A DNA stretch of 64,000 bases from positions 116,295 through 180,294 of the forward strand of contig CAZIFD010000001.1 of assembly GCA_964538685.1 (NCBI GenBank). Direction: 5' to 3'. This stretch comes from an uncultured Bdellovibrionales bacterium. Lineage in GTDB: Bacteria > Patescibacteriota > Minisyncoccia > Moranbacterales > UBA2206. Shown in pieces: positions 12,236 to 61,077 of the stretch. The notes beneath the pieces were generated by a model. The model was not told the DNA's origin. It saw only the letters and a program-made list of their open reading frames with translations, and searched no databases. Position 1 is the first letter of the stretch, and the number at the start of each line of letters is the position of its first letter. Position numbers and translations under genes: made by a program.

Positions 12236-12270
12236 GTGTCATTCCCACGAAAGCGGGAATGACAATGACA
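12236..12270. repeat. Copy of the dispersed GC-rich palindromic repeat (GTCATTCCCaCGAAAGCGGGAATGACAATGAC)
   Basis: Shares the ATTCCCGC...GCGGGAATGACAAT core with the copies at 47361-47520 and 61046-61077. The loop is inverted relative to the other copies. Lies in the divergent priA/GT26 intergenic region. Confidence 0.6.
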
Positions 12271-12292
12271 CTATCTTAATAATGACAAAAAT

Positions 12293-12985
12293 ATGGAAAT
12301 TTTAGGAATAAAAATAGACAATTTGGAGCGAGAAGAAATTCTTTCAAAAATAGAGAGTTTTTTAGATGAGCCGAAATTTCATCAAATTGCTACGATTAAT
12401 CCGGAATTTGTTCTTGAGGCTCAAAAAAACGAGCAATTTAAAAAAATTTTAAATGAATGTGATTTGAATGTAGCGGACGGATATGGTCTCAATCTGGCTT
12501 TTTGGTTAAGAGGGAAAAAACTCAAAAGCCGTTTTCCGGGAGCGGATCTTTTGCCGGAAATTCTAAGAATAGCTGAAAATAGAGGGTTGGTTGTTTTTTT
12601 GGCTTGCCGAAAAGATGGACTGTCCAGTTTTTCAGAGATTGAAAGAGCAATTTTGGAAAACTATCCGAAATTAAAATTGGAAGGCAAAAATATTGACATT
12701 AATGACAAACATTTAGAATTGTATGCTAAATATCAAATTATGATTTGCAACTTTGGTTCGCCTGAACAAGAAGCCTTTATTCAAAAACAAAAAAATGATA
12801 CAATGCGTTTAGCGATTGGCGTCGGTGGAGCGCTGGATTTTTTGTCAGGAAGAATCCAAAGAGCGCCAAATTTTTGGCGAAAAATAGGATTAGAATGGCT
12901 GTGGAGATTTATTCAAGAGCCGGGCTATCGCTGGAAGAGAATTTGGAGAGCGGTTGTGGTTTTCCCTATAAAATTAATTTTTTAA
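12293..12985 (+). CDS. WecG/TagA/CpsF-family (GT26) glycosyltransferase
   Basis: TINPEFVLEAQKN...VADGYGL...FGSPEQE...WRFIQEPGYRWKR is the typical GT26 pattern. Confidence 0.75.
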   Translation: MEILGIKIDNLEREEILSKIESFLDEPKFHQIATINPEFVLEAQKNEQFKKILNECDLNVADGYGLNLAFWLRGKKLKSRFPGADLLPEILRIAENRGLVVFLACRKDGLSSFSEIERAILENYPKLKLEGKNIDINDKHLELYAKYQIMICNFGSPEQEAFIQKQKNDTMRLAIGVGGALDFLSGRIQRAPNFWRKIGLEWLWRFIQEPGYRWKRIWRAVVVFPIKLIF

Positions 12986-13022
12986 ATTAAAATAATTTAG
13001 GAGAAATTATTTCAAAGTCATT

Positions 13023-13382
13023 ATGATGAATGAAATGCAAGCACAAGCAATGGATTTGAGCAATGAGCAAATAAAAGATGCTTGGGTTGAGTGTAGAAAA
13101 AAATTAGGGATGGAAAAAGAAGATAGCGAAAAATGCAATGCTAATTATATCCAAGGAATAGTTTCTTGGGCTGAAAATAAGCTAACTGAAACCTTTCTTG
13201 ATGAAAATATTAAAAAGGAAATACAAGGAGAAATAAACGATTTAATAAATAAAGTCAAATTGATAATTAAAAATAAAGGTGAATGCGACGGAGATATGGA
13301 AAATATTTCTGAATTGTGTGAACTGGCTTCGGACGCGGAAAATTTGGCCCAAGAAATTTTTGAATTAACTTATGAACAATAA
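13023..13382 (+). CDS. Hypothetical acidic protein
   Basis: 119-aa ORF overlapping the gltX start by 11 nt. No motif recognised. Confidence 0.4.
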   Translation: MMNEMQAQAMDLSNEQIKDAWVECRKKLGMEKEDSEKCNANYIQGIVSWAENKLTETFLDENIKKEIQGEINDLINKVKLIIKNKGECDGDMENISELCELASDAENLAQEIFELTYEQ

Positions 13383-14898
13383 TCAAAAAATCAGAACCAG
13401 ATTTGCGCCTTCCCCGACCGGCTATTTGCATATTGGAAGCCTAAGAACAGCGCTTTATGCTTATCTTTTTGCCAAAAAAAACGGCGGTGATTTCGGGCTT
13501 CGGATTGAAGACACTGACCGGAAAAGATATGTTCCCGGATCAGTGGAAAAATTGATTGAGTCTTTGGAATGGGCGGGACTGGAATATTCCGAAGGTCCTG
13601 TTTTGGAAAAAAAATCAGGATCCGCCGAATCAAAAAACTATCCAAAAGTTTTTGAAATTGGGGAGTATGGACCCTATTTTCAATCAGAACGCTTGGAAAT
13701 TTATCAAAAATACGCAATGGAATTGGTAGAAAAAGGACATGCCTATTATTGTTTTTGCGAACCGGAAAGGTTGGAGGAAGTGAGGAAACAACAGGCGACT
13801 GAAAAAAAACCTCCGATGTATGATCGCTATTGCCTTCACAATTTGAAACCGGAAGAGGTTAATCAAAAACTCAAAGAAAATTGTGCTTACACTATCCGAA
13901 TGAAAGTTCCCAGAGGAAAAATAATTGAAACTGATGATATTATCCGAGGCAAAGTCAAGTTTCAAACCGATCTTTTGGACGATCAAGTGCTTCTCAAGTC
14001 CGACGGCTTTCCAACTTATCATTTGGCCCATGTGGTGGATGATCACTTGATGAATTTCACTCATATTGTTCGGGGTGAAGAATGGTTGCCGAGCTTGCCA
14101 AAACATTTGTTGTTGTTTGAATTTTTCGGTTGGAAAGCGCCACGCTATGCTCATTTGCCCTTGCTTCTCAATCCTGACAAATCCAAACTTTCCAAAAGAC
14201 AAGGCGATGTGGCGGTGGAAGATTATGTAAAAAAAGGTTATTTAAAAGAAGCTATCATCAATTTCGTGGCTTTTTTAGGCTGGAATCCGGGAAAAGGGGA
14301 GACGCAGGAAATTTTTTCTTTTGAAGAACTCATCCAAAAATTTGAGTTGGAAAAAGTGCACAAAGCGGGAGCGGTTTTTGATCTTCAAAAACTGGATTGG
14401 CTCAATGGGCAATATATAAAGAAACTTTCCTTGGATGAACTTTATGAAAAAGCGTTGCCATTTTTAGAAAAGAAAGATTTTTTTGAAGAGGCTTCGGAAG
14501 CAAGAAAATCAGAAACTTATCTTAAAAAAGTTTTGGAAATTGAACAGGATCGCCTTTTGAAATTAACTGAGGCGGGGGAGAGTAATAGGTTTTTCTTTGA
14601 AGACATTAGTCCTAAAAAAGAAATGCTTCAGTGGAAAGAAATGACGGATGAAGAGCTCAAAGATTCTTTGCAAAAATCAAAAACCGTTTTGGAAAAAATT
14701 TCCGAAGAAGATTGGACACGGGAAAACTTGGAAAAATTGCTTTTGGAAGTGGCGGGTGACAAGCGGGGTGATTTGTTGTGGCCTCTTCGGGTGGCGCTTA
14801 CGGCCGAGAAAAAATCTCCGTCGCCTTTTGAAGTGGCTTGGGTTTTGGGCAAAGAAGAAAGTTTGGCAAGAATTGAGACGGCCTTGGCATTGATTTAG
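13372..14898 (+). CDS. gltX: Glutamyl-tRNA synthetase
   Basis: HIGH motif (PSPTGYLHIGSLRTAL), KMSKS-like KLSKR, class I catalytic domain layout. Confidence 0.9.
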   Translation: MNNNQKIRTRFAPSPTGYLHIGSLRTALYAYLFAKKNGGDFGLRIEDTDRKRYVPGSVEKLIESLEWAGLEYSEGPVLEKKSGSAESKNYPKVFEIGEYGPYFQSERLEIYQKYAMELVEKGHAYYCFCEPERLEEVRKQQATEKKPPMYDRYCLHNLKPEEVNQKLKENCAYTIRMKVPRGKIIETDDIIRGKVKFQTDLLDDQVLLKSDGFPTYHLAHVVDDHLMNFTHIVRGEEWLPSLPKHLLLFEFFGWKAPRYAHLPLLLNPDKSKLSKRQGDVAVEDYVKKGYLKEAIINFVAFLGWNPGKGETQEIFSFEELIQKFELEKVHKAGAVFDLQKLDWLNGQYIKKLSLDELYEKALPFLEKKDFFEEASEARKSETYLKKVLEIEQDRLLKLTEAGESNRFFFEDISPKKEMLQWKEMTDEELKDSLQKSKTVLEKISEEDWTRENLEKLLLEVAGDKRGDLLWPLRVALTAEKKSPSPFEVAWVLGKEESLARIETALALI

Positions 14899-14911
14899 TC
14901 AAAAAGATTTT

Positions 14912-16183
14912 ATGCAAGCAAAAACAAAAAAAATAAAATTTAATAATAAATTTTTTTTAACGGCAACTATATTATTGCTGATTATTTTTGTCCTTGGTTC
15001 GGAAAAAGTTTTTGGAGTTGATTATTATGCCAAATGCGACGGAATAACTGACAGCACTCAAAAGAAACAATGTGAAGCGGAAGCGGAAAAAGCTGAGGCT
15101 TATGAAAAAATGATCAAACTTAAAGAGAAGCAAGAAAAAACCATTACAGGAGAAATAGAGGCATTAAATGTTCAACAAGGGCAAACTCAAGCAGAAATAT
15201 CCAGTACAAAAAAAGAAGTTGAAAGTCTTTCGGAAAAAATAAAGAGCTTGGAAAGAGATATTAAAGACAGAGAAAAAGAAATAAAAAACAAAAAAGAAAT
15301 GCTCAAAGGATTGTTGCAATCGGATTATCAAAACAAGCAGTCGGGAATTTTTGAATTAGCGTTTTTGGATAATAATATTGATGGTCTTTTTAATCAATCT
15401 GATCAAATTAATCAATCAGGAGATAAGATTATTGAATTGATGAATGAAGTGGAGGAAGCTAAGAGTGAATTGGAAAAAAATAAAAACGATTTAGGTGACA
15501 AAAAAAGCGAACAGGAAAGTGCTAAAGAAAAATTAGAACAAAAAAATTTAAATTTGCAGAGCGTTGAAAACAAGAAACAAGTTCTTTTGGGGCAAACTCA
15601 AGCAGAAAAGGAAAAATACGAGAAACTTTTAGCAACGGTTGAAAATGAAATTTATGATTTGGAATCCGGAAAATCAGTTGACTATGGTAATATTCCGGCG
15701 GCTAAAGGGGGATATTTTGACTATCCAGTAGGCAGTCCATCGGTTACTCAGGGTTATGGCTGTCTCAAGACGGCTTTTGCCAGAAAATCCTACCCGTCCT
15801 GTGATGGTGGAAAAGGCGGATTTCATAATGGAATTGATTTTGGGAAAAATAGCGGAACAACAATTTATGCAGTGCGAAGCGGAAAGATTATCGGTTCGGG
15901 AAACAATGGACGCTATGCTTATGGGCAATGGTTGGCAATTGATCATGGTGATGGGCTGGTAACTCTTTATGGTCATCTCAGTAAAAAAAATGTTTCCAAG
16001 GGCGACAAGGTGAAAACCGGAGATAAAATTGGGGTAATGGGAACTACTGGATATTCAACTGGAGTTCATTTGCATTTTACTGTTTTTGATAAGAAAAGTT
16101 TTGGAACAACTGAATCCAAATATGTTGACGGATTGATGATTCCCAATGGTGCTTCGGTTAATCCGAATAGATATTTAAAATAA
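14912..16183 (+). CDS. M23-family peptidase with N-terminal TM and long coiled coil (EnvC-like)
   Basis: Coiled-coil region of about 200 aa, then M23 motifs HNGIDF...GHLS...HLHF. Confidence 0.75.
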   Translation: MQAKTKKIKFNNKFFLTATILLLIIFVLGSEKVFGVDYYAKCDGITDSTQKKQCEAEAEKAEAYEKMIKLKEKQEKTITGEIEALNVQQGQTQAEISSTKKEVESLSEKIKSLERDIKDREKEIKNKKEMLKGLLQSDYQNKQSGIFELAFLDNNIDGLFNQSDQINQSGDKIIELMNEVEEAKSELEKNKNDLGDKKSEQESAKEKLEQKNLNLQSVENKKQVLLGQTQAEKEKYEKLLATVENEIYDLESGKSVDYGNIPAAKGGYFDYPVGSPSVTQGYGCLKTAFARKSYPSCDGGKGGFHNGIDFGKNSGTTIYAVRSGKIIGSGNNGRYAYGQWLAIDHGDGLVTLYGHLSKKNVSKGDKVKTGDKIGVMGTTGYSTGVHLHFTVFDKKSFGTTESKYVDGLMIPNGASVNPNRYLK

Positions 16184-16506
16184 AAAATAAAGCGTTTTCC
16201 CTGAAGGCGGATTTTTATTACTCGCCTTTTTTGTTTTTTGAGATTGGGAGGGGAGAGAGAAGGTGTGAAAAATAGAAAGCAATAAATTAATTTATTTCAA
16301 AATAAAAAAAGTCATTTTTATGGTGAATAATATTGAGAGAAAATAAAATAGTTTAAAAAATAATTTATTAAACTTGGGGGAATAATAAAAAATAAGAATT
16401 GTTTATAAGATAAGATTGTTTTTTAAATTAAAAAATAAAAAATAATTTTTCAAGCTAATTATTTTTCAAAAAAATATAAGCTTGATTTCTGTGAGATTCA
16501 GAAATA

Positions 16507-16552
16507 AAAACGACCCTCAAAATTGAAGTGAGAGTCGTTTTTATTTTTTTAT
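16507..16552. terminator. GC hairpin flanked by A/T runs (AAAAACGACCCTC...GAGAGTCGTTTTTATTTTTTT), bidirectional terminator-like
   Basis: 10-bp stem with one mismatch and T-runs on both sides, in a 516-bp AT-rich convergent intergenic region. Confidence 0.4.
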
Positions 16553-16699
16553 ATAGATAGATGTATGTGTCTTTTGCAAAAGCTAATATCAACCAAGAAA
16601 CCAAAACAAGAAAACAGTAATGTCGCAAAAGATACCTTGTGCGACGCTTGGGATAGTTCTGAGGCTCTGCTTCCCCGCCGTTTATTTTTTTGAGTCGGT

Positions 16700-17251
16700 T
16701 TAGTGTTTGTTATATTCAGAAATAAATTTTATTGGTTCGGACCAATATTCCATCTTGGTGTTCTCTTTCTTTTCATCCAAGTATCCCGGCAAAACTCTTC
16801 CGTGAAACGGTCCGTGATAAATGGCAAAATGCAGATGTTCTTCTTCCCAGCCTCCATTCATCTCGCTCATTGATTTTCCGATTTCTCCAAGCATTTCTCC
16901 CATTTCAACGGCGTCCCCTTTTTTGACAAAGCGTTTTCCCAGATGACCATAAATTGAATAAAAAATATTTTTATTTTTCGGATTTTTATGGGCAACAATA
17001 ACCACGCCACCCCAATTGGATTTCAAAATTTTTCCGTCTTCGGAAATTTTGGCCGGATGCAATTTGGAATAAACAACAACTCCTTTGCCAATGGAAAAAA
17101 CTTTGGTTTCGTGAGGCAAATGAAAATCAACTCCCAAATGAATTCCCCAATCTTTTCCTTGAAAAAAACCTTGGTCGCGAAACTGATCGTCAATGTCATC
17201 TTTAAAATTTTCCACTGGATAAATCAATTTGTTGGCTTCTTTAATTTCCAT
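16700..17251 (-). CDS. M23-family peptidase
   Basis: HLGVDFH, GHLG and HLHFA motifs. 183 aa. Confidence 0.7.
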   Translation of the reverse strand: MEIKEANKLIYPVENFKDDIDDQFRDQGFFQGKDWGIHLGVDFHLPHETKVFSIGKGVVVYSKLHPAKISEDGKILKSNWGGVVIVAHKNPKNKNIFYSIYGHLGKRFVKKGDAVEMGEMLGEIGKSMSEMNGGWEEEHLHFAIYHGPFHGRVLPGYLDEKKENTKMEYWSEPIKFISEYNKH

Positions 17252-17266
17252 AGTTTTTTGATAGCT

Positions 17267-18865: not shown

Positions 18866-18904
18866 AAATATTTTTCGTTTCCGCCTAGGCGGAAATCCAG
18901 TCAG

Positions 18905-19291
18905 TTAAATTAAATCTTTTAATTTTATTTTTTCCAAAGTTTCTTCAATATTTTTTCCGACTACTGTCCAAACTTTTTTGAGTGGACAATTTTCTTCTTT
19001 ATGGCAAACACTTCCAATGCACTTCATCGGACTAATTGGTCCGTCCAGAGCGACAATAATTTGGCGGAGGCTGATTTTTTGAGCTGATCGGGAAAGGGTA
19101 TATCCCCCGCTTGGTCCTTTGGTGCTTTGGACTAAATCATTTTTTCTGAGAATATTCAAAAGTCTTTCCAGATATTTGGAAGAAATTTTTTCTTCTTTGG
19201 CAATTGTTTTGGCCGGCTTGGCTGTTTTTTTTGATTTGGCCAAATTTACCATTGCCTGAAGTCCGTATTCGGTTTTGGAGGAAAATTTCAT
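18905..19291 (-). CDS. Rrf2-family transcriptional regulator (IscR-like)
   Basis: N-terminal wHTH typical of Rrf2 (SKTEYGLQAMVNLAK), upstream of iscS-iscU. Confidence 0.75.
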   Translation of the reverse strand: MKFSSKTEYGLQAMVNLAKSKKTAKPAKTIAKEEKISSKYLERLLNILRKNDLVQSTKGPSGGYTLSRSAQKISLRQIIVALDGPISPMKCIGSVCHKEENCPLKKVWTVVGKNIEETLEKIKLKDLI

Positions 19292-19436
19292 TTCTTGTTT
19301 TATTCCCTTGAAAACGGGAATCTAGTCATAGGGTTAATATCCCACTAATTTAGTATGCTTTAAGTATAAATAAAAAACAGGAATAAGTCAACTTTCTGTT
19401 TTTTTATTTATATTTGTCAAATAAATACATACAAGA

Positions 19437-20102: not shown

Positions 20103-20201
20103 TTTTGATACTCAATTTCTAAATTATTACGATTCTAAAATATCATAGCATCTAAATTTTAGCAACTGAGTCAAACATAGAATAAGCTGTATCCTTTATC
20201 C

Positions 20202-20897: not shown

Positions 20898-21053
20898 AAC
20901 AGGGCTATGTCTGTCGGTTTCATAGTTTTTTAACTTATTTTTTAAATACTTGCAATTTATTTAATTAATTATCCCTTTTGTGATATACTATCATCATTGG
21001 GAATTTATTGCCATATATTCTAACATAAGCAGATAAAATAAATATAAAGTTTT

Positions 21054-22178
21054 ATGCAAATATCCTATTCAGCGTTGGACACTTATCTTAATTGTCCGCT
21101 CAAATACAAGTTTCAGGCGATTGATAAGATTAAGACCCCCAAATCTAAAGAGGCGGTTTTTGGGACCGTGCTTCATGACACCTTGAAATTTGTTCATACC
21201 CCTGGTATTCTTTCCCCCACCTTGGAACAAGCAATGGAACATTTTGCCAATGCTTGGAATCCAATGGTTTTTGACGGCGAACAAGAAGAGCGAGCCGCTT
21301 TTTCGCAAGGAGTAAAAATTATTCAAGATTATTACCGAAAAAATAATCCGGCGGATGCCAACATCGTGGCCTTGGAATCACGGTTTCAGATTGAAATTGG
21401 CAAAGAGGGAAACAAACATATTGTTTCCGGTATCATTGACCGAATTGACAAGACCGAAGATGGTTATGAAATCATTGATTACAAAACCACCAAAAAAATG
21501 CCCACTCAAGAAAAAGTGGACAACGATTTGCAACTCTCGGTTTATCTTAAGGCTTTTTTGACTCACTATCCCAAAGAAATTGACAACCTCAAAAATTTGA
21601 AAGTAAGTTTGTATTTTCTGAAGCATGGTGTGAAACTTACGGCTGGCAGAAGCTTAGAACAACTCAAGGAAAGTGAAAATTTGTTTTTGGACACTATCAA
21701 AATTATTGAAGAAGGAAAATTTGAACCCAACATTTCCCCTCTTTGCGATTGGTGCGGGTATCAAAATATTTGTCCAATGTGGAAGCACAAGTTCAAGGAG
21801 CTTCGGAAAATTGACACTGATGAAGTTAATGAAGCTATTTCTGAGTACATTGAACTCAAATCGGCTGTTTCCATTACCAAAGACCGTCTGGCGGAATTGC
21901 AAGAAAAGATTTTGGAATATATGTCGCAAGAAGGAGTGGACAGGGTTTTTGGAGAAAACGGAGTGATCGGACAATCACTTAGAAAAACTTACAAATACGA
22001 CGAAAAAAGATTGCGAGAAATTTTGGAACCGCTGGACAAATGGGAAGCGGTTCTCAAGGTAGATGGTATTGCTCTTCGGAACATTCTTGGAGTTTTGCCT
22101 GCGGAAGCTAAAAAAGAAGTGGAAAAATCCAAAGTGGTGGACAAGGAAACCAAAAGCCTTTTGGTGAAGAAAAAGTAG
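21054..22178 (+). CDS. PD-(D/E)XK nuclease superfamily protein (RecB/Cas4-like) with C-terminal Cys cluster
   Basis: Nuclease core pattern (...IIDRIDKTEDGYEIIDYKTTKK) and C-terminal CDWCGYQNICPMWKH, reminiscent of a Cas4/AddB-type Fe-S module. Confidence 0.65.
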   Translation: MQISYSALDTYLNCPLKYKFQAIDKIKTPKSKEAVFGTVLHDTLKFVHTPGILSPTLEQAMEHFANAWNPMVFDGEQEERAAFSQGVKIIQDYYRKNNPADANIVALESRFQIEIGKEGNKHIVSGIIDRIDKTEDGYEIIDYKTTKKMPTQEKVDNDLQLSVYLKAFLTHYPKEIDNLKNLKVSLYFLKHGVKLTAGRSLEQLKESENLFLDTIKIIEEGKFEPNISPLCDWCGYQNICPMWKHKFKELRKIDTDEVNEAISEYIELKSAVSITKDRLAELQEKILEYMSQEGVDRVFGENGVIGQSLRKTYKYDEKRLREILEPLDKWEAVLKVDGIALRNILGVLPAEAKKEVEKSKVVDKETKSLLVKKK

Positions 22179-22182
22179 TTTT

Positions 22183-22875: not shown

Positions 22876-23010
22876 TTTTTTTGAAAATTAAAATTAAAAT
22901 TTGACCAAAATAAAAGCCAATCAATTTGGCTGAAAGAACATAAAAATTAGAAAAAACAAATTTATTTCGCTTGCGAGATTTTTATCCTTGATTCATCCTA
23001 ATCCAATATC

Positions 23011-23430: not shown

Positions 23431-23436
23431 TTTTTA

Positions 23437-45815: not shown

Positions 45816-47339
45816 CTATTTCCAGCGGTAAACACTCACCTTTCCTCGGACTTGAATGTTGTTTATTTTTTCCATTTTTTCTTCAATGAAGCTTTGGGCT
45901 TCTTTGGTAATGAAGACTTCATCATTATCGGAAAAAATCATCCAGCCGGACGGATTTTCGGCAATAATTTTTTCCAAGCGTTCCAAAGTAATTTTATTTT
46001 TATCCAATTCTCCCCCAAAGTCAAATACCGGAACTTTTTCTCCGGCAAAATAGTAATTGCGAAAATTACGAGCAATAAGAACATCGGAAGCAGTTTTGTT
46101 TTTTTTGAAGTAAGCGAAAATTTCCCGGTATCTGGGATTGTCGGAAGCGGAAGTCTGATTGTAGAAATTATCTTTTTGAAAAAAATAACCGAAGTTGGGC
46201 AAAAGCAAAAATGAGAGAGCAAGGCTGGCGCCGAAAATTTTGCTTTTGTTTTTGGAAAAATTATTTCTGAGAAAATCCGCCAAGCCATAGATTCCAGTGG
46301 CGACAAGAATAATTTTGAAAGACTGGACAAAAAAGATGTATTGATTGCCGGCATTCCGGTCCCAGAAGAAAACGGCCAAAATCAAAATGCCCAGAAACGA
46401 CCAAGAAAGCCAAAGTGTTTCTTTCTTGAGGTTGGCTTTTTTCCAGAGATAATAGATACCGAAAAGAATAAAAAATATTGCCAAAAGAGGAGCTTGGTAG
46501 TCGGACAGAACTTTGGAAACATAACTCCAGTGGCTGGTTAGTCCCAACCCGGCCAAAGCCGGTGAAACTTTTTCTTGAAAGAAAAGCAAGGAAAAAATCA
46601 AAAGCACCAATCCTAATCCCAAGAGAAAAGTGTATTTGTTGATTTCCAATTTCTTTTTTTCCTTTAATTTCCAAATGACTAGCGTGAGAATGTATCCGGC
46701 TAAAATGAAAACAATATTAACCGTGAGCAAATGGAGATGAAAACTGAGCGCTCCCAGAAGCAATGCCGGTAACAAATAAAAAGCATTTAGGGAAGTTTTA
46801 TTCCAGACAATTCTAAGTAGCTTATTTTCCCCTGAGTATTCTTTTTCCAGAAAACGAAAAAGAGTCCAAGAAAAAGCCAAGAAAATCGGGAAAAACATAG
46901 CGTACATTCTGAGTTTGCGGTCAAATTCAATTCCGTCCAAGCTCACCGCAAAAAGAAAAGCAGACAAAAGAGCAATAGTTTTGTTTCGGGTAAAATCTTT
47001 AGCGACAAGATAAATAAGAAGGATAGTTAAAATTCCCCAAAAAGCACTCACGCTACGAGCGGTGTTTTCGGTGGGTGGAAGGAATCTGAAAAGAGTGGCC
47101 GCTTGCCATTTGTAGGCCCAGGCTCGTTCGTCCCGAGGAGCGAATTCATTATCGGTGTTTATTTTTTCAAAATTGAAATCCCAATTTTTCCACTCCCCTG
47201 TTTGGGTATAAGCATAAGAAGAGTTAATATCCAGAAATTCGTCGGCGACAAAAGAATTTTCTCCTAATTTATGGAAGCGAAGAAAAGCTCCCAAAAGAAG
47301 AATTGCCAAGAGAACTAAAAAACTATAATTTTTTTTCAT
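45816..47339 (-). CDS. GT-C glycosyltransferase, PMT/ArnT-like (PMT_2 family)
   Basis: At least 11 TM helices. First-loop DE motif (FVADEFLD) in the position conserved in GT39/GT83 enzymes. Confidence 0.7.
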   Translation of the reverse strand: MKKNYSFLVLLAILLLGAFLRFHKLGENSFVADEFLDINSSYAYTQTGEWKNWDFNFEKINTDNEFAPRDERAWAYKWQAATLFRFLPPTENTARSVSAFWGILTILLIYLVAKDFTRNKTIALLSAFLFAVSLDGIEFDRKLRMYAMFFPIFLAFSWTLFRFLEKEYSGENKLLRIVWNKTSLNAFYLLPALLLGALSFHLHLLTVNIVFILAGYILTLVIWKLKEKKKLEINKYTFLLGLGLVLLIFSLLFFQEKVSPALAGLGLTSHWSYVSKVLSDYQAPLLAIFFILFGIYYLWKKANLKKETLWLSWSFLGILILAVFFWDRNAGNQYIFFVQSFKIILVATGIYGLADFLRNNFSKNKSKIFGASLALSFLLLPNFGYFFQKDNFYNQTSASDNPRYREIFAYFKKNKTASDVLIARNFRNYYFAGEKVPVFDFGGELDKNKITLERLEKIIAENPSGWMIFSDNDEVFITKEAQSFIEEKMEKINNIQVRGKVSVYRWK

Positions 47340-47360: not shown

Positions 47361-47520
47361 TTATTTTACTGGATTCCCGCTTTCGCGGGAATGACAATAA
47401 CTTTAGTTATTTTAATGAATTCTAGTTTTCGCGGGAATGACAATAACTCTGGTTGTTTTACTGGATTCCCGCTTTCGCTCGCTTCGCTGAAGCTTTATTG
47501 AAGCGGGTGGGAATGACAGT
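47361..47520. repeat. Tandem/degenerate array of the dispersed GC-rich palindromic repeat (core ACTGGATTCCCGCTTTCGCGGGAATGACAATAACT)
   Basis: One full copy (47368-47408), one half-copy (TTTCGCGGGAATGACAATAACT) and one copy with about 26 nt inserted into the palindrome (CCCGCTTTCGC[...]GGGTGGGAATGACA). The same core occurs at 12236-12270 and 61046-61077. Confidence 0.65.
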
Positions 47521-47571: not shown

Positions 47572-49353
47572 CTATTCCAGCTCTTCCTCATTCTCAGTTT
47601 CGGAAAATATTTCTTCCCAACGGTAGCGAACCGGAACACCGGGAGCGCTTTGGGGTTTTCCTTTGGGTTTAAAAACTTGCCGATCGGCGTTGATGGAAGC
47701 TTCTCTGGGAATTAAACGAAAAACAACCAGTGTTCCGAATTGTTTGGTTTCAAAAACATCAAAGTCGTTCATATATTTTCCGGTTTTTGAAGAAAGGTTG
47801 GAAAGAGTGGGATAAATCAAGAAATAATTGCCCTCTCGGTAGATGGTTTTGACATTGCGAAAATCATCTTGGGGGATGTTTCTTTTTTGCAAATGATAAA
47901 GGAAAGAACGACGAAAATAAGCGTCGCTGTTGATGTATGTCGGATAAGCGTTTTCTGCATAAACCTTTTCCATATAATCAACAATCAAGTATTGTTGTTT
48001 GAGAGTAACTCGGTTCTTTTCTTTGAGAATCCGGTCGGGATCAATTTCAAAAGATTGATAAGGAGCATTCGTCAGTTCTTGAAATCTTTTGTAAACCGAC
48101 AATGAATTGGAAAGAAGTAATAATAAAACGATTATTCCAATCAAAACCGCGGTTATTTTTTTATTTTTCATTAAATCTTCAAAAAATTGGAAAATCAATC
48201 CCAAGAAGACGAAAGGTAAGGCTCCAATCAGAAGAAAAAATCGGGGGGCAATGTCATAAGCTACGGGAAAAAATAATCCCAAAGAAACAACAAACCAAAT
48301 CAGGTTAAGCAATAAAAAATCTTTTTGGTGAGTGGGTCTTTTTTTGAATTGTTGAAAGTTTTTGAAAATTAAGATTCCGGCTCCGGAAGTGAAAAAAATG
48401 AGAGCCATAGCGCCAAAAGGCAAGTTTTCCCGGCAAGAAGCGTCGCAAGTGATGTCAAATGAGGTTAGGGAAAGTTGTTTGAACTTGGGAACTTCGGCTT
48501 TTTCCCGACTGCTTATGAGTAGAAAATATCCCAGGGAATTTTCCGAATAATCACGAACAGCTTTTTCAATCAAGGTGTGTTCATCGGTGGATTTTTTAGA
48601 AAAAGCTTTTTGAAATTCTTTGATGTTGTCTCCGCCGGTTTTAATGTCATTTAAAATTACGGGGAAATAAAAAAATAAAACAATTGCGATTGAAGCCAGC
48701 CAATAGCCGATTTTTATTTTTGGTCTTTTCACGATGAGATAAATCACAGCAATTGTCGGCACTGCCATAAAAGCCAAGAAATGGAGCTGAGTGACGATGG
48801 AAAGGGCAACGGCGAAAACCAAGAGCCAAATCCCTTTTCTTTTTTCATCCGGATAACTGATTTTCCGAAGCGCCAAAAAAGCCACCAAGGAGAAAAACGG
48901 AATGTTGTTGGGATTCCAGCCAAAATGGGAATACATAACAAAAAAAAGCGAAGTGGAAAAAAGAAGTGTCAAAAAAAGGGATCGTTTTTTTCCAAAATAA
49001 TCTTTGAGAAAGAAATATAAAACTATAATGGTGAAGCAGGAAAAAACCAAAGAAATTCCCACCATTCCAGGAGGGGTGGCGCCGAAAATCTTGGCGCTTA
49101 GATATTCAAAATAATAAAAAATCGGACCAAGTCGGAGAAAGGATCCGGCCGCTTTGGGACCAAGAAGAGGCAAATTTTCCACTCCTTCTTCCAATGCTAA
49201 GTCAATTACTTTGGCGTCTCGGGACTGATCCAGCTCAAAATGCAAAAAATCATTAAAATGATAGATTCGCAAATAGGCTCCCAAAAGAAAAATTAGCAAT
49301 AGAAAAAAATGGATTTTATACTTGAAAAAGAGTTCCTGAGCTTTATTTTTCAT
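47572..49353 (-). CDS. GT-C glycosyltransferase, PMT/ArnT-like (paralog of 52847..54403)
   Basis: N-terminal region collinear with 52847..54403 (LRIYHFNDFLHFELDQSRDAKVIDL...LGPKAAG...LGPIFYY vs LRLYDFSDLLRFNDDQVRDAIVVEK...LGPKAGG...LGPIFYY), then multiple TM helices and a C-terminal soluble domain. Confidence 0.7.
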   Translation of the reverse strand: MKNKAQELFFKYKIHFFLLLIFLLGAYLRIYHFNDFLHFELDQSRDAKVIDLALEEGVENLPLLGPKAAGSFLRLGPIFYYFEYLSAKIFGATPPGMVGISLVFSCFTIIVLYFFLKDYFGKKRSLFLTLLFSTSLFFVMYSHFGWNPNNIPFFSLVAFLALRKISYPDEKRKGIWLLVFAVALSIVTQLHFLAFMAVPTIAVIYLIVKRPKIKIGYWLASIAIVLFFYFPVILNDIKTGGDNIKEFQKAFSKKSTDEHTLIEKAVRDYSENSLGYFLLISSREKAEVPKFKQLSLTSFDITCDASCRENLPFGAMALIFFTSGAGILIFKNFQQFKKRPTHQKDFLLLNLIWFVVSLGLFFPVAYDIAPRFFLLIGALPFVFLGLIFQFFEDLMKNKKITAVLIGIIVLLLLLSNSLSVYKRFQELTNAPYQSFEIDPDRILKEKNRVTLKQQYLIVDYMEKVYAENAYPTYINSDAYFRRSFLYHLQKRNIPQDDFRNVKTIYREGNYFLIYPTLSNLSSKTGKYMNDFDVFETKQFGTLVVFRLIPREASINADRQVFKPKGKPQSAPGVPVRYRWEEIFSETENEEELE

Positions 49354-52843: not shown

Positions 52844-52846
52844 AAA

Positions 52847-56482: not shown

Positions 56483-56493
56483 AAAAAATTAAT

Positions 56494-57801
56494 TTAATTT
56501 CTCCCTACTCCAAAATATTCAAATCCGGCATCTTTCAGAGTTTGCGGGTCATACACATTTCGGAGATCAACAAAAACCGGTTTTTTCATTAATTTTTTAA
56601 TTTTAGACAAATCCAGCGAACGGTATTCATTCCATTCAGTCAGAAGAACAAGGCATTCGGCGTTTTTGGCGACTTCATAGGGGTCGCCCACATATTCAAT
56701 TTCCGGCATCAATTCTTTGGCGACTTTCATTGCTTCAGGATCGTGCGCTTTAACAAGGGCGCCTTTTTCAGAGAGAGCGGTTAAGATTGTGAGAGCGGCT
56801 GCTTCACGCATATCATCAGTTTCCGGCTTGAAAGCCAAACCTAAAATCCCGACAGTTTTTCCTGACTCATTTCCTCCTAAAGCTTTTTTAACTTTCTGGA
56901 CCATCCGAGCTTTCTGGGCACTGTTGACTTCAATGACGGTCTCCACAATGCGACTGGGAGCGCCGTGTTCTTGAGCGATGCGAGTGAGGGCGTGAGTATC
57001 TTTGGGAAAACAAGATCCGCCGTAGCCCGGACCGGGATGCAAAAATTTTGGTCCGATTCTTTTGTCCAGTCCCATTCCTTTGGAAAGAGCGGTAATATCG
57101 GCGTTGATTTCTTCGCACAAATTGGCCATTTCATTAATGAAGCTGATTTTGGTAGCCAGAAAGGCGTTGGAAGCGTATTTGATAAGTTCGGCGGTTTGCG
57201 GATTAGTAACCACCATTGGGGTTTCAATAAGGTAAAGCGGTTTATAAATATCCCGCATCACTTTTTCGGCTTTTTTGGTTTCTACTCCAATAACCACTCG
57301 GTCAGGACGCATAAAATCATCAATTGCAGCTCCTTCTCGCAAAAATTCCGGATTGGAAACTACATCAAATTTGGCTTTCTTGTTGGTTTCTTTGATGATT
57401 CTCTTGACTTGTTTGGCTGTACCGACCGGAACGGTGCTTTTGTCAATAACGGCAGTGTAGTGATTGATGTGGGGCGCAATTTCTCGGGCGGCTTCATAAA
57501 CAAAAGATAAGTCGGCATAGCCGTCGCCACGACGCGAAGTTGGAGTTCCGACAGCAATAAAAACCGCATCCATATCAGTTACGGCTTTTTTGGTTTCAGT
57601 AGTGAAAGAAAGTCTTTTTTCCTTAACATTTTTAGCTACCAACTCGTCAAGTCCGGGTTCGTAGATTGGAATTTTTCCTTTCTCCAAGGCTTCAATTTTT
57701 TTCTTGTCTTTGTCTAAGCAAATCACACTATTGCCAAATTCTGCCAAACAGGTGCCACTGACGAGTCCGACATAACCTGTTCCAATGATGCCGATTTTCA
57801 T
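56494..57801 (-). CDS. ugd: UDP-glucose 6-dehydrogenase
   Basis: GTGYVGLVSG Rossmann, catalytic-Cys GGSCFPKD. 435 aa. Confidence 0.85.
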   Translation of the reverse strand: MKIGIIGTGYVGLVSGTCLAEFGNSVICLDKDKKKIEALEKGKIPIYEPGLDELVAKNVKEKRLSFTTETKKAVTDMDAVFIAVGTPTSRRGDGYADLSFVYEAAREIAPHINHYTAVIDKSTVPVGTAKQVKRIIKETNKKAKFDVVSNPEFLREGAAIDDFMRPDRVVIGVETKKAEKVMRDIYKPLYLIETPMVVTNPQTAELIKYASNAFLATKISFINEMANLCEEINADITALSKGMGLDKRIGPKFLHPGPGYGGSCFPKDTHALTRIAQEHGAPSRIVETVIEVNSAQKARMVQKVKKALGGNESGKTVGILGLAFKPETDDMREAAALTILTALSEKGALVKAHDPEAMKVAKELMPEIEYVGDPYEVAKNAECLVLLTEWNEYRSLDLSKIKKLMKKPVFVDLRNVYDPQTLKDAGFEYFGVGRN

Positions 57802-57805
57802 AAAT

Positions 57806-58744
57806 TTATCTTTCGCTTATTTTTTTAATTTTGTAATTCATATGACCTTGGTTTTTGTAATAATTTTTGACCATAATATCAGCCAAGAGTCCGAAAACAA
57901 AAAGTTGGATGCCAATCATAATCAAAAATACTCCAACTAGTGGCCAAATTTTTTCACTGAGCGAAGTTCCAAAAAATATTTTTTCTATTAACATCCAAGC
58001 CAAGACAGCGATTCCGAGAAGCGACAAAACGATGCCACTGCCACCGAAAAGGTGAAGTGGTCGGTTGGAATATTTTCGCCAAAACCAAATGGAAATCATA
58101 TCTACAAAACCTTTGACTCCCCTTTTCCAATTATATTTGGTCTTGCCGTGAATTCTGGGATGATGTGATACCTTAACTTCGCCGACTTTGTAGCCTTCCA
58201 ATTCCAAGATAGCCGGAATAAAACGATGCATTTCTCCAAAAAGATCAACATCTTGAAAACATTCTCTTTTGTAGGCTTTGAGCGAACAACCGGAATCGTG
58301 AATTTTGTCTTGAATCAGAATTTTTCTGAGAAGATTGGCGGTTCGGGAAAAGAATCGTTTGGAAAAAGTGTCTTTTCTATCAAATCTCCAGCCGGAAACC
58401 ACATCAAACCCTTGGCTTATTTCAGAAAGAAGAAGCCGGATGTCGGCTGGATCGTTTTGGAGGTCGCCGTCCATTGTGATGATTATTTCTCCGTTTGCAT
58501 TTTTGATGCCGGCGTCAAAAGCGGCGGTTTGGCCGAAATTTTTTCGGAATTGAATCAGCTTGAGAGGTGTTAGTCCTTCGGTTTCAGAAACGGTTTTATC
58601 TTTGGATCCGTCGTCAATAAAAATTATTTCATAACTTTTTCCCAATGACTCGCAAGCCTCTTTGATTTTTCGGTGCAATTCTTTGACATTCCCCTCTTCG
58701 TTGTAAAGTGGCACGACAACTGACAGTTCTTTGGTGTGTTCCAT
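57806..58744 (-). CDS. GT2 polyprenol-phosphate glycosyltransferase (DPM1/GtrB/ArnC-like)
   Basis: LSVVVPLYNEEGNV...IFIDDGSKDKT...MDGDLQ plus two C-terminal TM helices. Confidence 0.75.
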   Translation of the reverse strand: MEHTKELSVVVPLYNEEGNVKELHRKIKEACESLGKSYEIIFIDDGSKDKTVSETEGLTPLKLIQFRKNFGQTAAFDAGIKNANGEIIITMDGDLQNDPADIRLLLSEISQGFDVVSGWRFDRKDTFSKRFFSRTANLLRKILIQDKIHDSGCSLKAYKRECFQDVDLFGEMHRFIPAILELEGYKVGEVKVSHHPRIHGKTKYNWKRGVKGFVDMISIWFWRKYSNRPLHLFGGSGIVLSLLGIAVLAWMLIEKIFFGTSLSEKIWPLVGVFLIMIGIQLFVFGLLADIMVKNYYKNQGHMNYKIKKISER

Positions 58745-58888
58745 AAATTTTCATTTAATTTAATCTACTCTCAATTGTATTAAAAATCGGGCAAAGTGGC
58801 AAATGCTTGAATTTTGTCAAATATTTGAATTTAGGAGCATAAATTGGTAAAATAAACTTATTGTTAAAATTAATTTAAAATAAAAAAT

Positions 58889-59452
58889 ATGCAAGAAAAA
58901 TTTGAGGCGGTTTGCGAACTCTTGAAAAAATTAAAGGAAGACCAATCTTTTTTGGAAGCTTCCCAAAAAGCCTCTGAAAAAATCGCCAAATCTTTGGAAA
59001 ATGGAGGCAAGCTTTTGGTTTGCGGAAATGGTGGCAGTGCGACGGAGGCTTCTCATATGGTCGGAGAATTTGTCGGTCGTTTCGGTTTTGATCGTCCGGC
59101 ATTGCCGGCCATCTCTCTTTTTGACTTGGCTTCAACGACAGCCATTGGCAATGATTATGGGTATGATGATATTTTTTCCCGTTTTGTAGATGGTCTGGGA
59201 AAAGAAAATGATGTTTTGTTTTCATTGAGCACTAGTGGCAATTCAAAAAATTGCTTAAAAGCAATGGAGACGGCTCAAAAAAAAGGAATGACGAACATTG
59301 CTCTTTTGGGAAGAGATGGAGGCGCAATGAAGGAATTGGCGGATGTTTCAATTGTGGTTTCTTCCGACAAAACTCCGCTCATTCAAGAAGTGCATTTGAT
59401 GGTGATTCATAATTTGTGCGAAAAAACGGAAAATTATTTTTTTAAGAAATAA
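58889..59452 (+). CDS. gmhA: Phosphoheptose isomerase (SIS domain)
   Basis: KLLVCGNGGSATEASHMVGEF...FSLSTSGNS matches GmhA. Confidence 0.8.
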   Translation: MQEKFEAVCELLKKLKEDQSFLEASQKASEKIAKSLENGGKLLVCGNGGSATEASHMVGEFVGRFGFDRPALPAISLFDLASTTAIGNDYGYDDIFSRFVDGLGKENDVLFSLSTSGNSKNCLKAMETAQKKGMTNIALLGRDGGAMKELADVSIVVSSDKTPLIQEVHLMVIHNLCEKTENYFFKK

Positions 59453-59464
59453 AACAGCTAATTT

Positions 59465-60508
59465 ATGATTACGGAAAAAAGAGTTTTGGAAATTATTAAA
59501 AATGCTCAAAGGAAAAATGTTCTTTCAGTGGGAGATGTGATGCTGGATGCCTATATGAATGGAACAGTGGAGCGATTTTCTCAGGAAGCGCCGGTGCCGG
59601 TAGTGCCGGTGACGGAAGAAGAATTTTTTCCCGGTGGAGCGGGAAATGCGGCGGCTTGCCTTTCAACTGTCGGAATTAAAACCCACTTGTTTTCAGTGGT
59701 GGGAAGCAAAGAAAGAATCAGTTATTCTAAAATTCTTAAAGAAGAATGCAAAAAAAGCGGAATAATCCCCTATTTTTCTATTGATTCCACGAGAAAAACA
59801 ACTCTCAAACTTCGTTTGGCAGCCAGAAAAACTACCAGTCAACATATTGCTCGGGTGGATATGGAGGATACTTTTCCAATTGGTCACGAAATTGAAAACA
59901 GACTGATTGCTGACATCAAAAAAAATTATGCCAAAATAAAACCATTGGCTATCGCTATTCATGATTACAAAAAAGGATTGCTGACGGAGAAAATATTTTC
60001 TTTCTTGATGAAGTTGTCGCAAGACAAAAAAATTCCGGTTTTCGCCGATCTCAAACAGGACACTTTCGTCAAATACCGAAGCTTGATTTTGGCGCCGGAA
60101 TTATTTTTTTTGAAACCCAACCGAGGCGAATCGGTGGAGACGGCCAAGCTTTTGAACGGTTTTGACAAAAATGGAAAAACGGATGAAGAAATAGTGGAAG
60201 TGGGGAAAATAATTCAAAAGGAAGTTCCCATCAAAATTATTATTACCCGAGGAGAAAAAGGAGCGGTCTTTTTGGAAAAAGGAAAGAAACCGTACTTTGT
60301 TCGGATTAAGCAAGTGGAGGAGCAATTTGATGTGGCGGGTGCTGGCGACACGGTGGAGGCTTTTTTGGTAATGAGTCATTTGGGCGGGGCGACTATGGAA
60401 GAAGCCTTGGAAATCGCCGTGGCGGCTTCACAAGTGGCCATTCGCAAATTCGGCACTTCGGTAGTTTCGCAAGATGAAATTTTGGAATGGATAAGGAAAA
60501 ACCCATGA
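59465..60508 (+). CDS. D-glycero-beta-D-manno-heptose-7-phosphate kinase (RfaE/HldE domain I, PfkB family), stand-alone
   Basis: GDVMLDAYMNGTVERFSQEAPVPVV...GAGDT is the RfaE-I pattern. Confidence 0.75.
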   Translation: MITEKRVLEIIKNAQRKNVLSVGDVMLDAYMNGTVERFSQEAPVPVVPVTEEEFFPGGAGNAAACLSTVGIKTHLFSVVGSKERISYSKILKEECKKSGIIPYFSIDSTRKTTLKLRLAARKTTSQHIARVDMEDTFPIGHEIENRLIADIKKNYAKIKPLAIAIHDYKKGLLTEKIFSFLMKLSQDKKIPVFADLKQDTFVKYRSLILAPELFFLKPNRGESVETAKLLNGFDKNGKTDEEIVEVGKIIQKEVPIKIIITRGEKGAVFLEKGKKPYFVRIKQVEEQFDVAGAGDTVEAFLVMSHLGGATMEEALEIAVAASQVAIRKFGTSVVSQDEILEWIRKNP

Positions 60509-61077
60509 AAGTCATTTTTCTTGATCGGGATGGGACAATTAATGTGGACAAGGGCTATGTTTTTCAAAAAGAAAATTTGGTTTGGGAAAAAAATGTGATT
60601 TCAGGACTCAAGCTTCTTGGGGAAAGCGGATTTGAATTCATAATCATTACTAATCAGTCGGGAATCGCCCGAGGATATTTTTCCGAAAAAGAATTTTTTG
60701 AGTTTAATGATTTTTTGGTGGCGGAACTAAAAAAAGAAAACATAGCCATCAAAAAAACCTATTTTTGCCCCTATCATCCCACTGAAGGAATAGGAAAATA
60801 TTTACTTGATTCCCCTCTTAGAAAACCGGGAACCGGAATGATTGAAAAAGCTTTTCGGGATTTTCCGATTGACAAAAAATCATCTTGGATGATTGGCGAC
60901 AAATGGTCAGATGTTTTGGCGGGAAAAAATTTCGGTTTGCGTTCAGTTTTGGTTTCAACCGGAAAAGCCGGTCAAGACAAAGAGCACCAAACTGAGGCTG
61001 ATTTTGTGGCTAAAGATTTTCTGGAAGCGGCCAAGTTTATAATAAACATGACTGGATTCCCGCTTTCGCGGGAATGA
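60487..61077 (+). CDS. gmhB: D,D-heptose 1,7-bisphosphate phosphatase (HAD)
   Basis: FLDRDGTIN motif I, ...GDKWSD motif IV. The last nine codons and the stop come from the palindromic repeat. Confidence 0.75.
   Translation: MDKEKPMKVIFLDRDGTINVDKGYVFQKENLVWEKNVISGLKLLGESGFEFIIITNQSGIARGYFSEKEFFEFNDFLVAELKKENIAIKKTYFCPYHPTEGIGKYLLDSPLRKPGTGMIEKAFRDFPIDKKSSWMIGDKWSDVLAGKNFGLRSVLVSTGKAGQDKEHQTEADFVAKDFLEAAKFIINMTGFPLSRE
61046..61077. repeat. Copy of the dispersed GC-rich palindromic repeat (ACTGGATTCCCGCTTTCGCGGGAATGACAA), forming the 3' end and stop of gmhB
   Basis: Identical core to 47368-47400. Encodes the ...MTGFPLSRE* tail of gmhB. Confidence 0.65.

Follow-up and report, generated by a model that had tools for sequence, protein, structure and literature searches.

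The GC-rich palindromes dispersed through the window, by which we mean the whole 64-kb stretch of DNA analysed, are, judged by their sequence, true copies of the family of Neisseria Transformation Sequences (NTS) or Ssn-related motifs (SRM), a very widespread repeat that has already been described under several names (CGTC-1 REP, Neisseria dRS3 and Rickettsia RPE-6). Because both the repeat and its single-stranded DNA (ssDNA) nuclease partner are known, the finding is genuine and the element type is not new; current knowledge is not overturned by it. The complete explanation that we propose, and consider quite probable, is that the palindromes belong to this family, that they would be substrates of an Ssn nuclease if one is encoded, that copies spread within patches of DNA, that the aberrant copies are variants or relics, and that the fusion of one copy to gmhB is incidental.

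Family identity of the repeat

Two copies, referred to here as canonical, match the 28-nt sequence TGTCATTCCCGCGAAAGCGGGAATCCAG exactly on the minus strand (Table 1), and the sequence common to them is identical across 28-30 nt. The 27-mer GGATTCCCGCTTTCGCGGGAATGACAA occurs at 47371-47397 and 61054-61080, with an expectation of zero from 100 dinucleotide shuffles. Scanning the window with the 28-nt unit and allowing up to 8 mismatches returned 8 matches, versus none in 50 shuffles. The similarity is not due to chance, and the three loci (12.2, 47.4 and 61.0 kb) reported in the first-pass annotation are confirmed. One match with 8 mismatches, at 48909-48936 inside the PMT_2 gene, was too weak to be counted.

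The canonical unit is laid out as TGTC, ATTCCCGC, GAAA, GCGGGAAT and CCA(G), giving an 8-bp stem (ATTCCCGC/GCGGGAAT) around a 4-nt loop, with an asymmetric TGTC head and CCAG tail. An initial estimate of an 8-11 bp stem holds at its lower end only, as the stem is longer nowhere but at 12.2 kb, the sole copy with 12 pairs (including one A-C or G-T position). Folding as ssDNA predicts hairpins of -9 to -11 kcal/mol with z-scores of -4 to -5.6.

The published NTS, CGTCATTCCCGCGMAVGCGGGAATCYRG, differs from both canonical copies by a single mismatch (C1 to T), and up to one mismatch is the search criterion used by the authors who described the NTS/SRM (Chenal et al., Nat Commun 2025, PMC11893778). 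The remaining window copies carry 5-7 mismatches. The degenerate SRM pattern HGTCWYN(0-2)YYVSBRHN(0-5)WNVSBRGN(0-2)RNCYNB has exactly two matches in the window, namely the canonical copies, while the dRS3 pattern ATTCCC-N8-GGGAAT has four sites (12241, 19302, 47373 and 61056). The canonical copies also agree with the definition of the CGTC-1 REP, which is reported to be equivalent to dRS3 and RPE-6 (Di Nocera et al., BMC Genomics 2013, PMC3733652), in their CGTC/TGTC-type tag (TGTC here), 8-bp stem beginning with AT, 4-nt loop and CCA tail. As with CGTC-1 repeats, there are dimers, clusters and an occasional intragenic copy. The NTS/SRM unit itself is a 28-nt asymmetric element in which a (C/T)GTC head precedes an 8-bp stem ATTCCCGC with a 4-nt loop, and a C-Y-R-G tail follows; the window repeat shares its asymmetric head and tail, stem, loop, intergenic position and clustering, and is identical over 28 nt except for the first base. 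The departures are that first base, T instead of C, and a symmetric copy that lacks the C after the palindrome.

The host offers a further difference. It is AT-rich (36% GC), uncultured and probably CPR-like, and the main text of PMC11893778 is silent on CPR. Four ORFs of the window match a 5.4-kb Saccharibacteria locus (L120), which is the best or sole match for three of them.

Copies in the window and their surroundings

The window holds approximately seven copies in 64 kb, only two of them intact; the other five are decayed, interrupted, symmetric or diverged, and would represent variants or relics of the NTS/SRM family. Two diverged copies had been overlooked when three loci were first listed; they flank an Rrf2 gene, one lying between the start of an IscS-like gene (18865) and the Rrf2 stop (18905), the other 7 nt upstream of the Rrf2 start (19291).

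Table 1. Repeat copies in the window, and the patch that differs from the variant strain L122.
Feature	Position	Strand	Observation
Canonical NTS/CGTC-1 copy, 28 nt, TGTCATTCCCGCGAAAGCGGGAATCCAG	61052-61079	-	ssDNA hairpin predicted at -9 kcal/mol, z -4.3
Canonical 28-nt copy, first unit of the array	47369-47396	-	exact match
Decayed full-length copy, TGTCATTCCCGCGAAAACTAGAATTCAT	47415-47442	-	23/28 positions; head and first arm intact, second arm mutated
Interrupted copy	47461-47518	-	head TGTCATTCCCAC (47507-47518), insert (47479-47506), then GCGAAAGCGGGAATCCAG (47461-47478)
Symmetric "double-headed" variant, TGTCATTCCCACGAAAGCGGGAATGACA	12237-12264		TGTC head on each strand; no C after the palindrome
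Diverged copy, TTTCGTTTCCGCCTAGGCGGAAATCCAG, 7 mismatches	18873-18900	+	hairpin and CCAG tail retained, GTC head lost
Diverged copy, TTTTATTCCCTTGAAAACGGGAATCTAG, 6 mismatches	19298-19325	+	fits ATTCCC-N8-GGGAAT; CTAG tail retained
Patch divergent from L122	60945-61082		gmhB 3' end and repeat (identity profile, mismatch list)

The array at 47.4 kb sits between two minus-strand genes, a PMT_2 gene (47572-49353) and a 507-aa ORF (45816-47339). Its second unit, initially taken for a half copy, is in fact a full-length copy that has decayed and is no longer predicted to fold stably (-0.4 kcal/mol, z +0.7). The third was correctly recognised as a copy with an insertion, which measures 28 nt rather than about 26 and has a small hairpin of its own; this interrupted copy is 100% conserved in sample SRR5581382. 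The 12.2-kb copy occupies the space between two divergent genes, priA (10120-12135, minus strand) and one for a WecG-family glycosyltransferase (12293-12985, plus strand). The loop inversion noticed there, and proposed as a hallmark of mobility, is explained by the orientation of an asymmetric element together with the existence of a separate, fully palindromic variant that is widespread. A second symmetric copy is present 8 kb upstream of the window, at 6798-6825 of L127, which comes from a 99.7%-identical strain.

Given these positions, it could be asked whether the hairpins act as RNA, as terminators or as mRNA-stabilising or processing structures at gene ends. Three sites (61052, 18873 and the array at 47.4 kb) are at or just past the 3' ends of genes, the GAAA loop is a GNRA-type tetraloop on one strand, and Di Nocera et al. 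(PMC3733652) mention such roles as having been proposed for REPs in older literature. However, the 12237 copy occupies a divergent promoter region, the 19298 copy is upstream of a gene, and SsnA is inactive on RNA (PMC11893778). An intrinsic terminator was rejected, as none of the copies is followed by a T/U tract and none is among the terminator-like calls; Rfam at the gathering threshold identified only a tRNA, and no family for the repeats, across the whole window. A role at the RNA level is thus improbable.

It had also been suggested that the palindromes are regulator-binding sites at the boundaries of glycan clusters. Two of the loci do flank glycosylation genes, and an operator for a glycan or cell-envelope cluster regulator, or for the neighbouring Rrf2 regulator bracketed by two diverged palindromes, would account for these placements. 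The idea is nevertheless exceedingly unlikely: an identical 23-mer adjoins 146 unrelated gene families across many phyla, window copies also adjoin priA and the Rrf2/IscS operon, and a near-identical strain (L122) lacks the gmhB copy. Moreover, a conserved asymmetric head and tail would be unexpected in a site bound by a dimer.

Distribution and the nuclease partner

An exact match to the 23-nt core occurs in at least 120 genome stretches, which belong to many phyla and include 8 candidate-phyla (CPR) metagenome-assembled genomes, and in 112 stretches of viral contigs; the symmetric variant occurs in at least 120 stretches of metagenomes. Besides the CPR, the core is carried by members of the Chloroflexota, Omnitrophota, Nitrospirota, Acidobacteriota and further groups, a range that differs from that given for the CGTC-1 REP. 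The flanks, which formed no part of the search, match the published consensus, with C or T at -1 (92-95%), C at +1 (97%, over 294 copies elsewhere), C or T at +2 (about 96-97%) and A at +3 (87-91%). Adjacent pairs of copies no more than 200 nt apart in other genomes comprise 13 tail-to-tail, 2 head-to-head and 6 direct arrangements.

The partner of this repeat was identified in 2025 as Ssn. SsnA is a single-domain GIY-YIG ssDNA nuclease of about 94 aa that binds the hairpin of one strand and cuts a few nucleotides upstream of its head, and in Neisseria it restricts the integration of transforming DNA carrying the motif (PMC11893778). The GTC immediately 5' of the palindrome is required for cleavage, and the C immediately 3' is required, and most important, for binding (PMC11893778). 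The two canonical copies and the tail of the interrupted copy have both features; the symmetric copy has G in place of the C, and the GTC head is gone from the 18873 and 19298 copies. The canonical copies would be recognised and cut by an Ssn-type nuclease, provided that the genome or its neighbours encode one.

As in the NTS/SRM system, small GIY-YIG genes adjoin copies of the repeat in other genomes that we retrieved. Single-domain GIY-YIG ORFs (PF01541) of 85-109 aa were found near copies at 5 of 120 genome loci, within approximately 25 nt of the repeat in three cases (L047, L090 and L119), at 3 of 112 viral loci, one of which (L152) is an NTS-gene-NTS cassette, and at 3 of 120 loci of the symmetric variant. 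The putative Ssn-like protein of L090 has a Tyr-11-Tyr-47-Glu spacing equal to that of Y6/Y17/E64 in N. meningitidis SsnA, a comparison of residue spacing only. NCBIfam holds no specific model for these proteins, and a PDB sequence search with one of them returned only UPF0213 GIY-YIG proteins, as distant matches, and no structure of SsnA.

Within the 64-kb window, no Ssn-like or GIY-YIG ORF was detected by regular expression, by tblastn with an Ssn-like protein, or by hmmsearch (--max, with a five-sequence Ssn profile, against the ORFs of 30 aa or more in all six frames), in contrast to the NTS/SRM system, whose ssn gene is a single-domain GIY-YIG gene of the cd10448 type and often has the motif on its flanks. 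The 8 kb upstream, available through L127, also yielded none, making a total of about 72 kb. The window copies may consequently be orphans: relics with no cognate nuclease, acquired passively when motif-bearing DNA recombined into the genome, and now decaying and functionless. The condition of five of the seven copies agrees with this, as does the absence of ssnA from 19% of SRM-rich genomes (PMC11893778). Against it, two copies remain identical over 28-30 nt, and the 47.4-kb array is 100% conserved across samples. Furthermore, the head of the 47369-47396 copy is the exact end point of Logan contigs in three runs, and its tail is that of another contig; the breaking of three independent short-read assemblies exactly at the edges of the 28-mer implies that further identical copies exist elsewhere in the genome. 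On balance we consider it unlikely that the copies are functionless relics. The matter concerns their activity rather than their family identity.

Mobilisation as in classical REPs and REPINs, by a RAYT (the Y1 HUH transposase TnpA-REP), was another candidate. Like the E. coli-type REP/BIME elements, the palindromes are short, GC-rich, intergenic hairpins in clusters, arrays and inverted doublets, and both repeats are recognised in their ssDNA form by a small dedicated nuclease. However, the GTAG tag of the E. coli type is absent, its enzyme has the HUH Y1 fold whereas the gene spatially associated with the present repeat encodes a GIY-YIG nuclease, and RAYT-type REPs are largely lineage-specific, in contrast to a 23-mer that is identical across phyla. 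Pfam scans of the 58 window ORFs identified no Y1_Tnp or flanked Y1 gene, and the 140 nearest-neighbour ORFs in other genomes show no recurring transposase family. Di Nocera et al. (PMC3733652) likewise reported no RAYT flanked by CGTC repeats and no dedicated RAYT for the CGTC-1 class. We rejected the RAYT-associated class for the 64-kb window and regard such mobilisation as very unlikely. Of the REP-type reading in the first-pass annotation, what survives is a dispersed, hairpin-forming, REP-type family that is polymorphic for presence among strains; the Y1 partner does not.

The same scans identified no IS110 or other transposase among the 58 ORFs. Neisseria dRS3 is a phage recombinase target (cited in PMC11893778). 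IS110-family transposases and filamentous phages are reported to use dRS3 as an attachment or target site, and the palindromes of the window could be imagined in that role. That is scarcely plausible in this case, as the window has neither an IS110/Piv-type gene nor a prophage, and no copy has an element inserted in it apart from the 28-nt insert of the interrupted copy.

Fusion to gmhB and a strain without the copy

At 61 kb, the copy and a gmhB-like ORF (60487-61077, plus strand), whose C-terminus reads ...NMTGFPLSRE*, overlap over the final 8 codons and TGA stop of the ORF, and 8 nt separate the copy from the gene that follows (61088). An in-frame donation of codons and stop, as originally proposed, is therefore correct, the number of codons being about eight (TGFPLSRE) and not nine. 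In N. meningitidis, NTS copies are rarely intragenic (2%), in contrast to this in-frame fusion. Rickettsia RPEs within genes similarly supply codons, but typically as internal peptide insertions, whereas this copy is terminal, at the very 3' end of the gene, and takes the place of its stop codon.

A co-occurring variant strain (L122), otherwise 98-100% identical, lacks the gmhB copy. The only difference is a patch of 140 nt whose right edge (61082) falls 3 nt 5' of the repeat's head. In this one allele pair, the filled and empty forms are related by a replaced patch of 140 nt and not by a clean insertion with duplication, and the repeat unit, one 28-nt hairpin, lacks separate TIRs. We infer that copies may be gained or lost between strains within short recombined patches of DNA, with no classical transposase. 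The fusion to gmhB would then be incidental, with a copy landing at the 3' end, displacing the native C-terminal residues and providing a new stop.

The patch edge coincides, in this single instance, with the SsnA cut position as read from published oligonucleotide lengths (PMC11893778). It also coincides with the start of a conserved gene. A rather doubtful extension of the patch-borne explanation is that the repeat marks the start of Ssn-cut ssDNA fragments and that copies spread, transposase-free, by forming the 5' ends of short patches exchanged in recombination; the setting would be a CPR-like episymbiont reliant on DNA uptake. The divergent 140-nt patch fits this, as it starts exactly 3 nt upstream of the head and continues through the repeat into gmhB. 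If it is true, the near-identity of the 23-28-nt core across phyla and viral contigs would reflect movement of NTS-ssn-NTS cassettes between phyla.

For annotation, the palindromes should be labelled as NTS/SRM (CGTC-1 REP) repeats and not as candidate regulators or RAYT-REPs, and the odd C-terminus of gmhB (...TGFPLSRE*) as repeat-derived. The range of NTS/Ssn-type repeats grows by a genome that is AT-rich and probably belongs to the candidate phyla, and by several phyla that are additional to those of the 2013 survey. The strain comparison provides a single natural pair of alleles with a recombination tract that stops where the nuclease is predicted to cut, a pattern that could be used at population scale to follow the spread of the repeat and its effect on recombination.

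Copies of the repeat and their genomic context

The three loci at which the first-pass annotation had placed a GC-rich palindromic repeat were present as it described them. A 27-mer (GGATTCCCGCTTTCGCGGGAATGACAA) is repeated exactly at 47371-47397 and 61054-61080, where chance would give no such pair, and the unit read on the minus strand is 28 nt long (TGTCATTCCCGCGAAAGCGGGAATCCAG). With up to eight mismatches allowed, this unit matched eight sites in the window and none in 50 shuffles, placing the similarity well beyond chance. An intragenic weak match at 48909-48936 was left out of the repeat-copy count.

Positions of the repeat copies and of the insert in the interrupted copy
Feature	Position	Strand	Remarks
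Fully palindromic variant TGTCATTCCCACGAAAGCGGGAATGACA	12237-12264
Diverged copy	18873-18900	plus	Absent from the first-pass annotation
Diverged copy	19298-19325	plus	Absent from the first-pass annotation
Perfect copy	47369-47396	minus	28-nt unit scan
Decayed copy	47415-47442		23/28 positions matching
Interrupted copy, tail half	47461-47488		28-nt unit scan
Insert of interrupted copy, 28 nt	47479-47506		Minus-strand sequence CCGCTTCAATAAAGCTTCAGCGAAGCGA
Interrupted copy, head TGTCATTCCCAC	47507-47518		Separated from tail half by the 28-nt insert
Perfect copy	61052-61079	minus	28-nt unit scan

The limits of the unit are also visible in assemblies. The window was recovered at 100% identity in contig NODE_61 (151.8 kb) of ENA assembly ERZ17914141 and in Logan assemblies of three runs. 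In three runs, short-read contigs stop precisely at position 47396, the head of the perfect copy in the 47.4-kb array, and one more contig ends exactly at the tail of the same copy (47369). Contig ends at both edges are what de Bruijn assembly produces when a sequence has further copies in the genome, and they set the limits of the repeat unit at the 28-mer. In single-stranded form, each canonical copy has a predicted hairpin with a stem of 8 bp and a loop of 4 nt (-9 to -9.5 kcal/mol, z -4.3 to -5.6); for the palindromic variant the prediction is 10 to 12 pairs, differing between the strands, and for the decayed copy no fold was predicted. The insert of the interrupted copy has a 5-bp hairpin of its own (GCTTC-GCT-GAAGC) and is 100% conserved in another sample.

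The copies lie in DNA of 33-41% GC with a coding share of 91%. GC skew is positive across the whole window, and in both intact copies the predicted cleavable strand is the minus strand. The 12.2-kb copy is intergenic, flanked by priA and a WecG-type glycosyltransferase gene in divergent orientation, and the 47.4-kb array separates two minus-strand genes, one encoding a PMT_2 glycosyltransferase and the other, directly downstream of the array, a 507-aa ORF (45816-47339) that found no match in a Pfam search. At 61.05 kb the repeat overlaps the 3' end of a gmhB-like HAD phosphatase gene, whose product terminates in AAKFIINMTGFPLSRE before the stop, and a cytidylyltransferase gene starts 8 nt past the copy. 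The two diverged copies flank the gene of an Rrf2-family regulator (18905-19291, minus strand), with IscS/NifU genes downstream of it. No T tract was found after the repeat at any copy, the terminator-like calls include none of them, and the repeat was unmatched in Rfam at the gathering threshold. At two loci (12265-12292 and 61074-61101) the repeat end GGAATGACA gives an ATGACA '-35-like' hexamer followed 16 nt downstream by an A-rich '-10-like' hexamer; with only 9/12 matches, these are probably chance occurrences in AT-rich DNA.

Family identity and distribution

The Neisseria Transformation Sequence (NTS) has been defined as CGTCATTCCCGCGMAVGCGGGAATCYRG, an oriented 28-nt element enclosing the older dRS3 repeat ATTCCC-N8-GGGAAT, together with a degenerate 'Ssn-related motif' (SRM) (Chenal et al. 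2025, PMC11893778). The canonical copies differ from the NTS at the first base only (T for C); the SRM pattern matches these two copies and no other site in the window, and four sites fit the dRS3 pattern. The repeat also has every feature of the CGTC-1 REP as described earlier (Di Nocera et al. 2013, PMC3733652): the tag is CGTC, 'changed to TGTC in many repeats', the 8-bp stem starts with A-T, the loop has 4 nt and the tail is CCA. In that description the CGTC-1 REP is equated with dRS3 of Neisseria and RPE-6 of Rickettsia, and it 'lacks a dedicated transposase'. By its sequence it thus belongs to a known and recently explained family (NTS/SRM, equivalent to CGTC-1 REP and of dRS3 type).

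At least 120 stretches of species-representative genomes carry the 23-nt core (ATTCCCGCTTTCGCGGGAATGAC) without a mismatch, as do 112 stretches from IMG/VR viral contigs. Among the matches listed, carriers include Alpha-, Beta- and Gammaproteobacteria and former Deltaproteobacteria, as well as Chloroflexota, Bacteroidota, Acidobacteriota, Nitrospirota, Planctomycetota, Omnitrophota, Verrucomicrobia, Rickettsia and eight candidate-phyla MAGs (Paceibacteria, Parcubacteria, Saccharibacteria x2, Peribacteria x2, Falkowbacteria and Sungiibacteriota). At positions that the search pattern left unspecified, the base preceding GTC is C/T in 92-95% of copies, and GGGAAT is followed by C (97%), C/T (~96-97%), A (87-91%) and G (53-76%), with no conservation beyond these bases in the copies in other genomes. 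These free flanking bases match the published consensus and so replicate the published picture independently.

The REP/MITE-like reading of the first-pass annotation was right in spirit; the Y1 transposase it proposed as a partner is unsupported, since there is no transposase in the window or in the 8 kb upstream, and no transposase family (Pfam) recurs among the immediate neighbours of copies elsewhere. A regulator site at glycan-cluster boundaries likewise lacks support, as the direct neighbours of the identical 23-mer elsewhere are ordinary genes from 146 Pfam families.

The loop at 12.2 kb, previously taken to be inverted, is not flipped; both strands of this copy have a TGTC head, and the tail is missing. 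A 99.7%-identical strain (L127) has a second symmetric copy, differing at one base, 8 kb upstream of the window, and at least 120 metagenome stretches (32-69% GC) contain the exact symmetric 28-mer (R = G or A), accompanied there by canonical copies. Because of this wide occurrence beside canonical copies and the copy in L127, the symmetric form is a widespread sub-variant of the NTS/SRM family. An Ssn-like gene is a few kb or less away in three stretches among the matches listed. Published mutagenesis found the C following the palindrome to matter most for binding by Ssn, the GIY-YIG ssDNA nuclease partner of the NTS (PMC11893778), and the symmetric variant may for this reason be a poor Ssn substrate.

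Ssn-like genes and the host

Single-domain GIY-YIG ORFs of 85-109 aa (PF01541) were present at 5/120 genome loci with the repeat, three of them within ~25 nt of a copy (L047, Cloacimonadota; L090, Gammaproteobacteria; L119, Peribacteria), and at 3/112 viral loci. On a predicted viral contig (L152, IMG/VR 3300012964_000516), exact copies flank an Ssn-like ORF at 2922-3377 with a fourth copy 2 kb off, the NTS-gene-NTS arrangement published for ssnA. In L090 the motif tyrosines and glutamate are spaced Y-11-Y-47-E, equal to Y6, Y17 and E64 of N. meningitidis SsnA, the residues mutated in that protein (PMC11893778). The retrieved ORFs are putative homologues of Neisseria SsnA. The gene in L119, a Candidatus Peribacteria MAG (6662-6928), is 22 nt from an exact copy and carries an in-frame TGA, making it either a pseudogene or recoded. 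An SsnA homologue is encoded by 81% of SRM-rich genomes (PMC11893778); no Ssn-like gene was found in the window or in the 8 kb upstream. This bacterium may encode an active nuclease elsewhere in its genome or may carry orphan copies only.

Four window ORFs match a Saccharibacteria locus, which is the best or only match for three of them; together with the low GC and the gene content, this suggests that the host is a candidate-phyla bacterium. A complete-looking ADP-heptose-type pathway (58889-61573 and 63510-63989; SIS_2/GmhA-like, PfkB kinase, GmhB-like phosphatase and cytidylyltransferase-like genes), accompanied by a family-9 heptosyltransferase fragment and surrounded by many GT2/GT4/PMT_2 glycosyltransferases, Wzy and a flippase (27.6-58.7 kb), would be unusual if that host has no outer membrane. 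Other genes in the window include one for a 639-aa protein with papain-family peptidase C1, lectin-like and DUF5648 domains (61582-63501), within or just past which several assemblies (L121, L122) terminate, and a PD-(D/E)XK nuclease gene (21054-22178; PDDEXK_1, with weak Cas4-like and DUF7376 matches) whose position is unrelated to the repeat. An RF2-type release factor ORF (120-1142) has a TTG start in the mechanical ORF list, and the corresponding call in L127 (8227-9219) is 330 aa; a programmed frameshift or an alternative start is possible.

Strain polymorphism at the 61.05-kb copy

A co-occurring near-identical strain (L122, run SRR30684748) matches window positions 60450-63100 at 93-100% per 100-nt bin, mostly 97-100%, with the exception of one patch (60945-61082) in which identity falls to 63-81%. 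The repeat is missing from this patch, and the copy is therefore polymorphic among near-identical strains; in L122 the gmhB product ends in AAKYIVKNSN before the stop, followed by a 41-nt spacer. The two alleles differ by a short replaced tract, and a clean insertion with target duplication was not seen.

The final mismatch of the patch is at 61082 and identity resumes at 61083, which places its right edge 3 nt 5' of the repeat head. This is also where SsnA cuts, as we read the oligonucleotide lengths in PMC11893778. A minus-strand ssDNA fragment cut by Ssn and then recombined in would produce the patch as seen. The agreement of tract edge and cut site was seen only once, however, and the start region of the following gene is at that edge too.

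What is new for this family is the host group, the wider phyletic range of the identical 23-mer and the fusion to a gene end, along with one allele pair (n=1) in which the predicted cut site is the end of a putative recombination tract.
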